Shown here: positions 57,661 to 61,846 of the stretch, piece by piece
Layout of the letters: every line of letters starts with the position of its first letter
Position numbering within the stretch: position 1 is the first letter of the stretch
From: Candidatus Abzuiibacterium crystallinum
GTDB taxonomy: Bacteria > Omnitrophota > Omnitrophia > Omnitrophales > Abzuiibacteriaceae
NCBI GenBank assembly: GCA_002787155.1
Contig: PCVY01000028.1
Coordinates: 9,478 to 73,477, forward strand
Direction of reading: 5' to 3'
Length of the DNA: 64,000 bases
Program-made: the position numbers and the translations under genes
The notes under the pieces: generated by a model
The model's database searches: none
Seen by the model: the letters and a program-made list of their open reading frames with translations, nothing else
What the model was told of the DNA's origin: nothing

Positions 57661-60421
57661 CTAATTCTCCTTGTTCAATTTCAGTAATATGGTCAATTTG
57701 TTCCCAATTAATTTTAAATATTTTAACGGTTGTTTTTTGATCACTTTCTTGATAAACGGGCTTAAATAAAGAAAGCGTGATGCCATCCAAATAATACAAT
57801 TGATACAGCACTGAACGGATCAATGCCGGATCCGCGACAACTGCGCGCAACTGGCCCTGACGTTTAAAAAGCAAAACTGACAATGATACTTGGCTTTGAG
57901 GAAAAACATGCTCTACCAGTTTTTGATCAGTGACTTCAAAAACACTATAGGGCTGAATTCGTCCTACCCCGCTTGGCGGCTGTATCCAGATGCTTTGTGT
58001 TTGCATGTCCAGCAAAACACCGTTCTCGAATAATATCTTGTTCTCTTTTTGTTCACGAATCCCTGCTTCCGGCAAATATTTCCAAGCACCTTCAATCGTA
58101 TCGAACACCTCACTTAAATAGCCTTGAAATTTTTTCTCCTTCACTTCTTCATATCTGGTTAAATTTGTTGTGAGCCACCGATCTGCTGCCTGACCACCCA
58201 AGAAAGTTGGGCTCAAACCCACTTCCAGTGGCACTGAAGATTGCGATGCCTGAGGTGTCACGGGCGCTTGACTGTTTATTTGGTGATTAGGAATAAGAAG
58301 AGGATTTGTCCAGAAGGGTGTCTGTAAAACATTTTGAACCCAGTTACCCAAAGCAAGAATGATAGGTTTTTGAGTCAGTTGTTTTTTTTGCTGAAACTCT
58401 TTTGCCTTCCTAAAATTCCACTTTGCAAGGAGGGTCAAGGCTAAATTTTTTTCCATCAAATCATTATAAAGAAATAGATAAGAAGGCGGCGGTTGCTCAA
58501 TTTGTATCAAATTAACAAATGCTTTTTGTTCATCCGCTGACATTTTTCCGCTTAATTGCGCCATCAGGCTTGCTGGATCTAACGTCATGGAATCAGTAAT
58601 TAATTCGATGGCATCTGACAACTCCCAATGGCGCTCAAGCAGAAAATCAAGAGGCGCATTGCCTTTTGTGTTAACCATATTAAATAATCCAACTGCTGTT
58701 TTCTCATCAGAAGAAAGAAAAGCTCTGGCCATCCAATAGGTTTGGTGATTTTGCTGGGTGCCGCCGTCAATAACGGTGCGGCGTTCGGCGACTGCATTAA
58801 TAAAATAGCCGGGAGGCCACCAGCTATCAATAATGGCATTCGGGGGACTCTTCTCTTTTAAGTTCAGTAGACTATTATACCAAACATCATTCATAATCCT
58901 ACTCACCCCTTGCGCCCCGATATGTCCCAGAACCAACGGTACCGGAAGAAACAGACAGATCATGAGGAGCCTGGACACATATTCAAAAATCCTGATCCGA
59001 GGTGAATGTGAAAGAAAAATATTTCTAACGTTTAAGAGAGACTGCTCGATCGCATAGAACCCAAGGGCTGTCATGAAACCAAATGGGACTACCAACAAAA
59101 TAGCAAAACGCTCTGTTCGTAACGCCAATAAAATGGTAGGGATAGAAAATATAAAAATCACAAGCCATGCGAAACCCAACTCGGCCTTTTTCTCTTTTAA
59201 AAGAATGGCAATCAAGTAGCAAATGCCGTAAAGAGCAACCATTGCCATCACGGGGCTGCTGCATAAATACACCAGCTTTTTTATCGTCAAAGAATTGGTT
59301 TCGGCCACTGTTAAAAACGCATTTGGCCAAACCGAGACATCTGTGGATGAAAACATGGGGAGAAAGGTAAAAGACTCTTGAAAGACTTCCCACAAACCTC
59401 GCGGGGTCAAAAACAACACTGCCGCCGCCAATGTTGTGATGCCGTAAATAAGTCCAAACAAAAACATATGGTGCTTCATTCTAACGGCCAATTGGATAAA
59501 TCCAATTGCCAAACAGATGACGAATGCAAGCATAAACATATAAATCCATCCTGCCCAAAACAGCGTGTAGACCCCCGTGAGAAAACCAGCCGCAATCGGA
59601 TATCGAAATTGCTTTCTGTTTCCCTGTCGGCAGGCGAGGCACATGAGTCCGAAAATTAGGAGCTGGAATAACGGTTGGTAAGGATCGGTGTCATACCACC
59701 CAAGCGCACTCCTTTGCAAGTAAGCGGGAGCCAGCATCAAAGTAACGAGCCCTAGAAAAAGGGCGGATCCGCTTAAATTAAGCATCCGCCCAACCACAAA
59801 AAAAAGAAGACAACTTGCGCACACGAGAACAAGCGGAAAATATGAAAGCCCCTCCATCATATCAATTTTAGGATTCAAAGCATGAATGATCTTAAACCAG
59901 GAATAGCCTAAATATGGATGAAGCGTCTTGAGTGCCCACGCTCCGCTGGGGGCTTCACGAAGAGAGTTGAAAAAGCGCCCCGATTGATACGCGGATGATA
60001 ACTGACCCTCCTTTACAATCCGTTGAGTAAGGCTATAATAGTAATAAGAATCAGCGCCCAATAAGTAAATTCTTGAGTGTCCTTCATTACCGCCCCCTTT
60101 TGCTATTTGACTTGCCAATTTCTCAACACTTTCTTGAAATTGATCGTGGCTATTTTCAATAATTCTATCTGCTTGTTCATGCACCAATTGGTTCTTTAAT
60201 TTTTGATCAAGTCCTGGCAGTGAAGTTTCGTCTATGTTTTTTTTGATTTGACTGACAATTTTATTGTAAACCGCATCCCGCGCTAACTTGTGCGCAACAA
60301 AAGGTGAAACTTTGCGCAAGGTCTCTGTTCTAAAAAAACAGGCAATCAATCCAGATAAGATAATCAGCCCAATCCAGAAAAGACGCGACAGAAGACGATT
60401 GTCTTGCTGAAAAGTATGCAT
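57644..60421 (-). CDS. STT3/AglB/PglB-family oligosaccharyltransferase-like membrane protein (OTase-2). The WWDYG motif is replaced by SWWPPGY.
   Basis: The 925 aa product is a paralog of OTase-1. It has YLLGADSYYYYSLTQRI (EL1 acidic motif), a TIxE-like TVAE, and IIDSWWPPGYFINAVAERRTVIDGG aligning with PglB WWDYGY…TLVDGG. A long C-terminal periplasmic extension follows. Confidence 0.65.
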   Translation of the reverse strand: MHTFQQDNRLLSRLFWIGLIILSGLIACFFRTETLRKVSPFVAHKLARDAVYNKIVSQIKKNIDETSLPGLDQKLKNQLVHEQADRIIENSHDQFQESVEKLASQIAKGGGNEGHSRIYLLGADSYYYYSLTQRIVKEGQLSSAYQSGRFFNSLREAPSGAWALKTLHPYLGYSWFKIIHALNPKIDMMEGLSYFPLVLVCASCLLFFVVGRMLNLSGSALFLGLVTLMLAPAYLQRSALGWYDTDPYQPLFQLLIFGLMCLACRQGNRKQFRYPIAAGFLTGVYTLFWAGWIYMFMLAFVICLAIGFIQLAVRMKHHMFLFGLIYGITTLAAAVLFLTPRGLWEVFQESFTFLPMFSSTDVSVWPNAFLTVAETNSLTIKKLVYLCSSPVMAMVALYGICYLIAILLKEKKAELGFAWLVIFIFSIPTILLALRTERFAILLVVPFGFMTALGFYAIEQSLLNVRNIFLSHSPRIRIFEYVSRLLMICLFLPVPLVLGHIGAQGVSRIMNDVWYNSLLNLKEKSPPNAIIDSWWPPGYFINAVAERRTVIDGGTQQNHQTYWMARAFLSSDEKTAVGLFNMVNTKGNAPLDFLLERHWELSDAIELITDSMTLDPASLMAQLSGKMSADEQKAFVNLIQIEQPPPSYLFLYNDLMEKNLALTLLAKWNFRKAKEFQQKKQLTQKPIILALGNWVQNVLQTPFWTNPLLIPNHQINSQAPVTPQASQSSVPLEVGLSPTFLGGQAADRWLTTNLTRYEEVKEKKFQGYLSEVFDTIEGAWKYLPEAGIREQKENKILFENGVLLDMQTQSIWIQPPSGVGRIQPYSVFEVTDQKLVEHVFPQSQVSLSVLLFKRQGQLRAVVADPALIRSVLYQLYYLDGITLSLFKPVYQESDQKTTVKIFKINWEQIDHITEIEQGELDEKTT

Positions 60422-60458
60422 TGATATCCGCCAAAGTTAATATAAAATAATTGAGCCA

Positions 60459-60719
60459 TCGGGGAGTTAATTTTATCAATCCCCGCTGGCTCATCCCAGC
60501 GCATTGCTTTTTAATGCGCGTGGGATTACCAATGAAACCCCATACCAGCCCCGCTTGATCGTGACTGGTATGGGGTGAGAGGTCGGGGAAACTCCTCGAC
60601 CTCTCAAATAATTGAGGTGTTATCCCAGCGGGGATTGTTTCCGCCAAAGGCCAGATCTCCGCCGGAGGGACGGATCAGTCCTTTGGCTGAGGTCCTCTGG
60701 CGGAAGAATTAACTCCCCG
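60459..60719. ncRNA. GC-rich, highly structured element with nested inverted repeats, a candidate structured ncRNA / cis-regulatory leader or a MITE-like repeat
   Basis: Outer 13-bp inverted repeat CGGGGAGTTAATT (60459-60471) / AATTAACTCCCCG (60707-60719). An inner 13-bp pair CAATCCCCGCTGG (60477-60489) / CCAGCGGGGATTG (60625-60637). Several internal hairpins (60495-60526, 60538-60575, 60577-60604, 60639-60705). Local GC is clearly higher than the AT-rich flanks. It lies in the divergent intergenic region between OTase-2 and a GT2 gene. Confidence 0.4.
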
Positions 60720-60781
60720 TTGAATCAAATAATTTAGTAACTGATATTGATTAGCCGATAAATTAATCACAAAAAGGGCAT

Positions 60782-61486
60782 ATGAACACCCAAAAAATAC
60801 TTATCATTGTTCCCGCACTTAATGAAGAAAAACTCATCGGAGACCTTGTCCGTGAAATTAAGGCCGCCTATCCGTATGATGTTTTGGTCATTAACGATGG
60901 CTCGCTTGATCAAACTGCAGTTTATGCTGTTCAAGCGGGTGCCAAAGTTGTAACACATCCTTATAATCTTGGGATTGGCGGTGCCGTTCAAACAGGTTTT
61001 AAGTTTGCTGAGAAAGAGGGATATAAAATTGTTGTACAAGTTGACGGCGACGCTCAACATGACCCGCGATACATCCAGCCTCTTATAGAACCTGTCTTAA
61101 AAGGGCAATTTGATTTGTGTATTGGATCTCGTTTTATTAAACCTTCCGACACGTTTAAATCTACATTCATTCGGCGAATTGGTATCCGTTTTTTTGCTGT
61201 TCTATTGGGCTGGCTAACCGGTGTCCATGTAACGGACCCAACATCCGGCTTTCGAGCCACCGGCCCTGCTCTGATTAAACCATTTTCAACGAACTACCCC
61301 GTCGATTTTCCGGAGCCTGAAACCATTAAAATCGCAAAACGCTTAGGCGCTCATGTTGGCGAAGTCCCTGTGCAGATGCGTCAGCGTCTAAGCGGTCATT
61401 CGTCGATTCGCTATTTTCGAACGGTTTACTACATGATCAAAGTCACTATAGCCATACTCATTGATGCTTTAAGACGTAACAAATAA
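60782..61486 (+). CDS. GT2 family glycosyltransferase, DPM1-like polyprenyl-phosphate sugar synthase
   Basis: N-terminus ILIIVPALNEEKLIGDLV…VLVINDGSLDQT…VVQVDGDAQHDP (DxD). The protein is 234 aa. A small DUF2304-type membrane protein gene follows. Confidence 0.7.
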   Translation: MNTQKILIIVPALNEEKLIGDLVREIKAAYPYDVLVINDGSLDQTAVYAVQAGAKVVTHPYNLGIGGAVQTGFKFAEKEGYKIVVQVDGDAQHDPRYIQPLIEPVLKGQFDLCIGSRFIKPSDTFKSTFIRRIGIRFFAVLLGWLTGVHVTDPTSGFRATGPALIKPFSTNYPVDFPEPETIKIAKRLGAHVGEVPVQMRQRLSGHSSIRYFRTVYYMIKVTIAILIDALRRNK

Positions 61487-61495
61487 AGGTGATTT

Positions 61496-61846
61496 ATGAA
61501 TGTAAATTTCTTTGCAATTTTAAGCGCTTTTCTTATTTTATGTTTGGTTATTGAACTGATTCGACAACAAAAAATGACCTTTAAATATTCTTTATCGTGG
61601 TTGAGCGCCAGCCTTCTTGTTATCATTCTTGCTTTTAATGAAAAACTCTTAGCTAAAATCTCTACTTTTTTTGGCTTTGAACTGCTGAGTAATTTTATTT
61701 TCTTTTTGCTTCTTTTATTTTTTGTCTTCTTAAGTCTTCGGTTAACGATATTTATTAACGAACAAAATAACCGAAGTGAAACTTTGGCTCAAACGGTTGG
61801 TATTCTTGAGCATAAAATTAACGAGCTCGAGAAAAAAACACACTAA
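61496..61846 (+). CDS. Small membrane protein (DUF2304-like), a GT2-associated partner
   Basis: The 116 aa product has two or three TM helices and a C-terminal coiled-coil tail. It forms a conserved gene pair immediately downstream of a DPM1-like GT2 gene. Confidence 0.5.
   Translation: MNVNFFAILSAFLILCLVIELIRQQKMTFKYSLSWLSASLLVIILAFNEKLLAKISTFFGFELLSNFIFFLLLLFFVFLSLRLTIFINEQNNRSETLAQTVGILEHKINELEKKTH

Follow-up and report, generated by a model that had tools for sequence, protein, structure and literature searches.

A GC-rich, strongly folding spacer element in one Omnitrophota lineage is probably a MITE of an apparently undescribed IS family

Several kinds of bacterial MITEs derived from DDE-type IS elements are known, including Correia/NEMIS in Neisseria, RUP in Streptococcus pneumoniae, Nezha in cyanobacteria and ERIC in enterobacteria. 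Their insertion targets are short and AT-rich, and co-transcription with adjacent genes is common. Here we describe an element at positions 60445-60734 of a stretch of 64,000 nt of Omnitrophota DNA (hereafter, the window). Like Correia, RUP, Nezha and ERIC, which are about 100-400 bp long, it is short, non-coding and intergenic, shares terminal inverted repeats with transposase-encoding IS elements and forms very stable stem-loops. In contrast to them, its termini (AAATAATT-GAGGGGTCGGGGAGTT) and interior are unrelated, it is a composite that contains three or more pairs of termini and has a branched fold instead of a single hairpin, and it occurs once in 86 kb of its source contig. We consider it very probable that this element is a MITE, that is, a non-coding and non-autonomous derivative of an IS family with the ends AAATAATT-GAGGGGTCGGGGAGTT...AACTCCCCGACCCCTC-AAATAATT; it possibly represents a new family of a known kind of element.

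The original prediction, made from the letters of the window, had pointed to a stretch that is richer in GC than its surroundings and can fold into a multi-stem structure, and this observation is confirmed far beyond chance. The GC content peaked at 0.55 (positions 60500-60699), compared with 0.36-0.40 in the flanks and 0.43 in the whole window. Folded as RNA, the + strand of 60450-60730 reached -157.9 kcal/mol (z = -13.6), and none of 200 dinucleotide-shuffled sequences folded as well. The – strand of the same interval reached -153.2 kcal/mol (z = -11.6), and in a GC-corrected scan of the 64 kb in 200-nt segments the locus was the sole strong outlier on both strands. The helices contained eight G-U pairs on the + strand versus five on the – strand, so that helix mismatches do not clearly favour either strand. 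The core helices were purely Watson-Crick, which together with the G-U counts fits a symmetry at the level of DNA.

The individual pairings were recovered almost entirely as predicted. The inner perfect 13-bp pairing joins 60477-60489 with 60625-60637, exactly as claimed. The outer perfect 13-bp pairing also exists and its right arm (60707-60719) was placed correctly, but the left arm lies at 60460-60472, shifted by one base; this block belongs to a longer inverted repeat of 30 nt with 83% complementarity (60443-60472 with 60707-60736). All four of the proposed internal hairpins were found by repeat finding and folding: CCCCATACCAG/CTGGTATGGGG is perfect over 12 bp, GAGAGGTCG/CGACCTCTC is perfect over 9 bp or extends to 13 bp with one G-T pair, CCCAGCGCATTGC/AATGCGCGTGGG contains a bulge of one base, and the complementarity of TTCCGCCAAAGG/CCTCTGGCGGAA is 92%. 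The motif ATCCCAGCG, said to occur twice, starts at 60493 and 60622. The open reading frame on the opposite strand (60330-60647) had been described as lacking coding support, and it indeed had no Pfam match; the part encoded by the element had no relative among 5.8 billion proteins. This frame starts with TTG and overlaps the start region of the adjacent STT3 gene in a different frame. The features of the element and its surroundings are summarized in Table 1.

Table 1. Positions (in the window) of the element, its parts and the flanking genes
Feature	Position	Strand	Remarks
STT3/PglB-type oligosaccharyltransferase gene, 925 aa	57644..60421	-	Flanks the element, outside its bounds
Sigma-70-like match TTGATA-16-TAAAAT	60421..60448	+	At the left junction, directed into the element and toward GT2; consensus match only
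Left flanking 8-mer AAATAATT	60445..60452	+	Possibly a target-site duplication of 8 bp, or else the outermost stretch of the terminus
Left terminus L1, GAGCCATCGGGGAGTT	60453..60468	+	Fits the left-end consensus GAGGGGTCGGGGAGTT, with all mismatches in the variable 4-nt block; pairs with R1
Terminus-like copy R2, CAATCCCCGCTGGCTCA, right-end type	60477..60493	+	Left arm of the inner 13-bp stem; its reverse complement GAGCCAGCGGGGATTG fits the left-core pattern
Interior hairpin P3, 6+8 bp, one bulge	60493..60526	+	Folding
Interior hairpin P4, perfect 12 bp + 3 bp	60537..60576	+	Repeat finding, folding
Hairpin P5: left-type terminus L3 (GAGAGGTCGGGGA) abutting the complete right terminus R3 (AACTCCTCGACCTCTC, 60590-60605)	60577..60605	+	Paralogous to the outer stem
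Internal AAATAATT	60606..60613	+	Directly after R3; in the tandem reading, the 8-mer common to units A and B
Degenerate left-type terminus L2, GAGGTGT[TATCCCAG]CGGGGATTG, with an 8-nt interruption	60614..60637	+	Right arm of the inner 13-bp stem
Long interior hairpin P6	60639..60705	+	Repeat finding, folding
Right terminus R1, AACTCCCCGTTGAATC	60711..60726	+	Fits the pattern AACTCCYCGNNNNNTCAAATAATT
Right flanking 8-mer AAATAATT	60727..60734	+	
Hypothetical empty site with one 8-mer kept, ...GTTAATAT-AAATAATT-TAGTAAC...	junctions 60444/60445 and 60734/60735		
Family-2 glycosyltransferase (GT2) gene	60782..61486	+	Flanks the element, outside its bounds; followed by DUF2304 (61496-61846)

The element occupies most of the 360 bp that separate the STT3 gene from the divergently oriented GT2 gene, and its edges lie 24 nt from the STT3 start codon and 47 nt from the GT2 start codon. 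We compared this spacer with the orthologous ones of three related Omnitrophota (L006, L009 and L012), whose GT2 proteins are 72%, 66% and 61% identical to that of the window and in all of which the gene order STT3(-)/GT2(+)/DUF2304/TPR/PilMN is conserved. Their spacers measure 70, 63 and 16 bp, respectively, and nothing resembling the element was found in the STT3-GT2 spacers of these three different species. Because the relatives keep the gene order with spacers of 16-70 bp that lack the element, the ~290 bp are an insertion specific to one Omnitrophota lineage, which argues against a conserved leader or riboswitch. The right flank in the window (GCCGATAAATTAATCA) is still similar to the spacer of L006 (GCCGATAATTACATCA). 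The spacer was identical, with zero differences, in all five contigs compared, which came from other samples and assemblers and were taken from the 18 that carry the exact GT2 protein. This invariance indicates that the element is real, and it offers no variable positions for covariation analysis; all five contigs carry the element, and no empty site in a near-identical strain was seen among them.

Repeat finding had revealed paralogy between the outer stem and the smaller P5 region (60577-60616): TGAGAGGTCGGGGA resembles TGAGCCATCGGGGA and AACTCCTCGACCTCTCAAATAATTGAG resembles AACTCCCCGTTGAATCAAATAATTTAG. We scanned metagenome contigs with AACTCCYCGNNNNNTCAAATAATT, the consensus of the two paralogous right arms, and obtained matches at no fewer than 120 loci, with at least 109 distinct contexts among the matches listed. 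Among these matches, the five free positions read ACCCC in 46 of 109 contexts, AAA precedes the motif in 60 of 109, and similarity between loci ends abruptly, exactly after AAATAATT. Judged by these sequences, AACTCCYCGNNNNNTCAAATAATT is the conserved end of a repeat family. Among the matches listed, 51 loci had a matching left end less than 1.5 kb away, which yielded 46 unique elements with unrelated flanks and the general form AAATAATT-GAGGGGTCGGGGAGTT(TTT)...(AAA)AACTCCCCGACCCCTC-AAATAATT. By length, again among the matches listed, 15 of these unique elements measured 67-220 nt, 14 measured 291-299 nt (mode 293), 11 measured 312-392 nt, several of which are the 293-nt type with small extra hairpin inserts, and six measured 1119-1170 nt. 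The short members are non-coding, and some metagenome contigs bear two or three family termini. All 40 MITEs of less than 400 nt among the matches listed folded strongly (z from -3.9 to -12.3), and the fold is therefore a property of the palindromic transposon DNA of the family and not evidence of an RNA function.

The short classes have some structural features of their own. The commonest MITE, the ~293-nt class, is a long near-perfect palindrome (L142, L156, L170, L173, L180, L188, L192, L194, L202 and L228) with an ATG-led segment ~20 nt inside each terminus on both arms; for example, the reverse complement ATGGATAATCTTTTTTTAAACCGCATGAACTCG reads MDNLFLNRMNS.... These segments may be a coding remnant or a structural module. 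Six elements of 312-392 nt (L154, L206, L208, L259, L195 and L211) consist of the 293-nt class plus a GC-rich hairpin of 14-100 nt (e.g. CTCCGAGGCGTAGGCTCTACGAGCCGGAGGCT), as if another mobile hairpin, smaller still, were able to nest in these MITEs. Elements of 107-169 nt (L155, L164, L168, L176, L196 and L243) contain hairpins of the forms GTCATKCCCGC...GCGGGMATGAC and CTGGATTCC...GGAATCCAG, and these have the appearance of a different, widespread palindromic repeat that became enclosed by the termini.

The six elements of 1.12-1.17 kb contain two open reading frames of ~118 aa (ORF A) and 206 aa (ORF B), and among the matches listed the transposase is encoded at nine loci. In all six of the ORF B proteins among the matches listed, Pfam DDE_Tnp_1_6 was detected at E ≤ 0.01 (best 7e-5); a score of 23.5 bits stood against a cut-off of 25.1. 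The NCBIfam models for IS1182 (NF033551; E = 2e-7, 30.1 bits versus a cut-off of 270) and IS5 (NF033578; E = 4e-3, 16.2 bits versus a cut-off of 275) both matched ORF B over the C-terminal catalytic region of the transposases of the IS1182/IS5/IS4 group. ORF B also contains YRERSFKVEPMQGMVK (Y-x2-R-x4-E-x6-K), which we take to resemble the YREK signature of the transposases of that group. The assignment of ORF B as a putative DDE transposase is thus a weak one, with matches under the curated cut-offs. Unlike IS1182 and IS5, for which the cut-offs are 270-275 bits, the relatives score about 30 bits, and compared with the IS1182/IS5/IS4 group they are short (1.12-1.17 kb) and have two ORFs, the N-terminal of which (ORF A) matched no family; by sequence comparison, membership of the autonomous relatives in IS1182 or IS5 is not demonstrable. 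No match to the transposase was found in plasmids, and no relevant relative in the PDB. The 90%-identity cluster of the 206-aa protein comprises 265 sequences, most of them on contigs of 1.2-1.5 kb and almost all on contigs of 0.9-2 kb, and its sole named member (MCJ7541098.1), from a Desulfobacterales MAG and hence from another phylum, is an NCBI "hypothetical protein". Autonomous copies accompanied by many short non-coding derivatives with the same ends constitute a classical IS/MITE relationship. In the literature, we found no paper containing the terminus string and none linking Omnitrophica with MITEs, and the IS/MITE family seems to be undescribed.

The original prediction had named a MITE with terminal inverted repeats as one candidate identity, and this candidate is supported by the termini, which match a family with 109 or more distinct metagenomic insertions, the 1.1-kb transposase-bearing copies among them. 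The left end of the window element (AAATAATT + GAGCCATCGGGGAGTT) agrees with the family consensus at 21 of 24 positions, the right end (AACTCCCCGTTGAATC + AAATAATT) at 19 of 24 and the internal right end (R3 + 8-mer) at 22 of 24, and all mismatches of the window termini fall inside a block of 4-5 nt that varies within the family too. At 290 bp, compared with the modal length of 293, the element is non-coding and below the size of about 600 bp expected of a MITE, and it has a 30-nt terminal inverted repeat with a perfect 13-bp core. Its termini are those of an autonomous IS, copies of which lie in contigs of other organisms, and it is absent at the orthologous sites of the three relatives, which are different species. 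Sensitive blastn searches found no homology of the interior to any family class, with similarity at the termini only; on this comparison, the window copy would be a new subclass of the family.

The additional copies for which the original prediction had proposed a BLASTN search of the same genome did not appear in 86 kb of the source contig (the 64-kb window and a further 22 kb). No second copy emerged within the window from blastn-short, from motif searches or from a search for the termini with up to three mismatches, and neither a transposase nor a further terminus was found there or in the additional 22 kb. Since this search of 86 kb was negative, the support for a MITE comes from family membership and not from the copy number in the source genome. 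Exact two-arm terminus patterns gave no matches in genome and metagenome contigs and missed even the known identical JGI copies (L002, L003 and L005). The pattern does match the JGI copies locally while the collections return none, and the source organism must therefore be absent or masked there, which makes these negatives weak. A 16-mer of the terminus had scattered single chance matches with no extended similarity in viral and genome collections, the two-arm pattern of the inner stem had no match in viral contigs, and a chimeric protein assembled from all six reading frames of the element matched nothing, so that no spurious ORFs of other copies came to light. Either the window copy is a stranded relic or its partner IS may lie elsewhere in the genome.

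We further analyzed the internal architecture of the element, in which three or more pairs of terminus-type repeats (L1/R1, R2/L2 and L3/R3) are accompanied by palindromic interior modules. From this arrangement of repeats, the window element appears to be a nested or tandem MITE. A tandem would have arisen through two successive insertions into the same 8-mer, giving unit A (60445-60613) and unit B (60606-60734), whereas in the nested alternative a single 290-nt unit would hold nested terminus pairs. The sequence AAATAATT occurs exactly at 60445, 60606 and 60727 and nowhere else within the window, and three identical direct 8-mers are what would be expected from two successive insertions into one duplicated target. 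Against a tandem, the AATT variant adjoining the core is private to L1 and R1; moreover, R2 and L2 are exact complements, which suggests one unit with nested or inverted mini-copies. A search of the family loci found, among the matches listed, another junction of R-terminus, 8-mer and L-terminus at locus L149 only, and the abutting L3/R3 arrangement is also present at loci L160 and L149. An uninterrupted form of the L2-type terminus (CAGGTGTCGGGGAATT) is present in family element L157.

The status of the 8-mer bears on how the family inserts. In the consensus, AAATAATT lies outside both termini as a direct repeat that is nearly constant across the family, and the flanks, as read from the sequences, are compatible with an 8-bp duplication only. 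The 8-mer could nevertheless belong to the terminus itself and not be a duplication. In the two element pairs that are free of ascertainment bias, the 8-mers are atypical but mutually similar (ATATAAAT/AGATAAAT and AATAAATT/AAGTAATT) and agree better in direct orientation (7/8 and 6/8, respectively). These pairs, including that of L228, favour the duplication of an AT-rich target. Among the matches listed, the two 8-mers differ by 1-3 bases in five of six full-length copies.

By analogy with all IS/MITE pairs, the DDE-like transposase, supplied in trans, would bind the termini of ~24 bp. The element would have been cut and pasted into an AT-rich 8-bp site with the consensus AAATAATT, which would then have been duplicated, again by analogy. 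What the comparison with the relatives shows is that the window copy entered the narrow gap between the divergently transcribed STT3 and GT2 genes of one Omnitrophota lineage. Its apparent RNA-like multi-stem fold is a by-product of DNA palindromy.

We also considered the possibility that the element functions as RNA, for which the original prediction had offered two candidates, a structured sRNA and a 5΄ leader or riboswitch controlling one of the flanking genes. Like riboswitches and structured leaders, it is intergenic, directly upstream of a gene, GC-rich relative to its background and multi-stemmed. However, it is not conserved at orthologous loci, its helices are unusually long and perfect, and its two strands fold equally well. 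A scan of the window against Rfam 15, the check that had been proposed, gave no match at gathering thresholds, and at E ≤ 10 the interval 60300-60900 had chance-level matches only (E ≥ 1.5). In addition, no intrinsic terminator was found after 60719-60736, and there is no obvious expression platform. Neither candidate withstood the refuting conditions named in the original prediction: the orthologous spacers of the three syntenic relatives lack the element, Rfam has no match for it, its 3΄ end bears no intrinsic terminator, and its helix mismatches show no clear strand preference. A version in which the element is, or was co-opted as, a structured cis-regulatory RNA, serving as a long 5΄ leader of GT2-DUF2304 (+) and/or STT3 (-) and controlling stability, translation or transcriptional interference, seems improbable to us. 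In its favour, the sigma-70-like match at 60421-60448 is directed into the element, the 24 and 47 nt left beside the start codons imply that at least one promoter lies in or beyond the element, the + strand folds slightly better and has more G-U pairs, and the 10-nt TCCGCCAAAG adjoins the STT3 start and recurs in P6. The promoter match scores 10 of 12, but chance alone would give ~0.9 sites of this quality in the region, and the promoter layout of the junction is not conserved in the relatives. The element itself is absent from all three of them, and transposon termini explain both the long perfect helices and the strand-symmetric folding. Furthermore, a cis-regulatory role is compatible with a MITE origin and would add to that explanation rather than replace it.

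We regard as very improbable an independent sRNA gene that was newly acquired by the lineage with its own promoter and whose likeness to transposon ends is secondary. Such a gene would account for a GC-rich, strongly folded intergenic stretch in a genome of lower GC content and for the promoter-like site at its 5΄ edge, but it has no terminator after its 3΄ end and no homologue in Rfam or elsewhere, the two strands fold nearly equally well, and coincidence cannot explain three separate 24-nt matches to IS termini. The modular build of the element, with several short GC-rich palindromes that share CGGGGA/TCCCCG cores, recalls REP/BIME- or REPIN-like palindrome clusters mobilized by a tyrosine (RAYT) transposase, or a local template-switch duplication, in place of a DDE-dependent MITE. 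However, the 1.1-kb elements with these termini code for a DDE-type protein and not for a Y1 transposase, the remainder of the 86 kb is free of such palindromes, and REPs are normally present in hundreds of copies; we find this explanation hardly credible. A retron, an IS200/IS605 omega-RNA, a group II intron fragment, attC and oriT were rejected, as there is no adjoining reverse transcriptase, TnpB or integrase gene and no Rfam match.

If the element is a MITE, as we favour, a false lead is removed: transposon termini account for what looked like a novel structured RNA of large size (z ~ -13, GC-rich, intergenic), and this calls for caution in GC- and fold-based screens for non-coding RNAs in uncultivated phyla. 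The IS/MITE family has been missed by current annotation, is abundant and breaks metagenome assemblies; a model of its termini would help repeat masking and the curation of MAGs. The element leaves just 24 and 47 nt free beside the two start codons, so that at least one of the two flanking mRNAs probably carries it as a long structured leader. The insertion between two protein-glycosylation genes may alter their expression in this lineage, but any regulatory role of the element would be speculation. A much bolder proposal combines two parts: an uncatalogued 1.1-1.2 kb two-ORF DDE IS family, faintly IS1182/IS5-like and listed as hypothetical in GenBank, that strictly targets an 8-bp AAATAATT site and has given rise to a large radiation of MITE classes in sediment and groundwater bacteria across phyla; and a composite MITE co-opted here as a shared, mutually antisense structured leader that couples STT3 and GT2 expression. 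We consider the two together a long shot.

Several minor observations concern the locus and the source contig. The sequence TCCGCCAAAG lies at 60427-60436, outside the element and 6 nt from the STT3 start codon, and is repeated exactly at 60640-60649 in the 5΄ arm of P6; its near-complement CTCTGGCGGA (60695-60704) forms the 3΄ arm of that hairpin. A rough estimate of the chance of a 10-nt repeat in 421 nt is ~0.08. The repeat could let the element pair with the ribosome-binding region of STT3 on a minus-strand transcript. A second STT3-type oligosaccharyltransferase gene (833 aa) is located ~4 kb beyond the first, at ~53.4-54.1 kb of the window (L263 19990-20660), and L009 (1-3937) likewise has two STT3-type genes in tandem. 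In both the window locus and L009, the STT3-type genes are embedded among type II secretion and type IV pilus genes (T2SSK, PilMN, T2SSE/F/G). The usual place of the tmRNA gene is after smpB, and on the source contig, outside the window, smpB is followed by a gene-free gap of 800 bp (L265 18495-19307).
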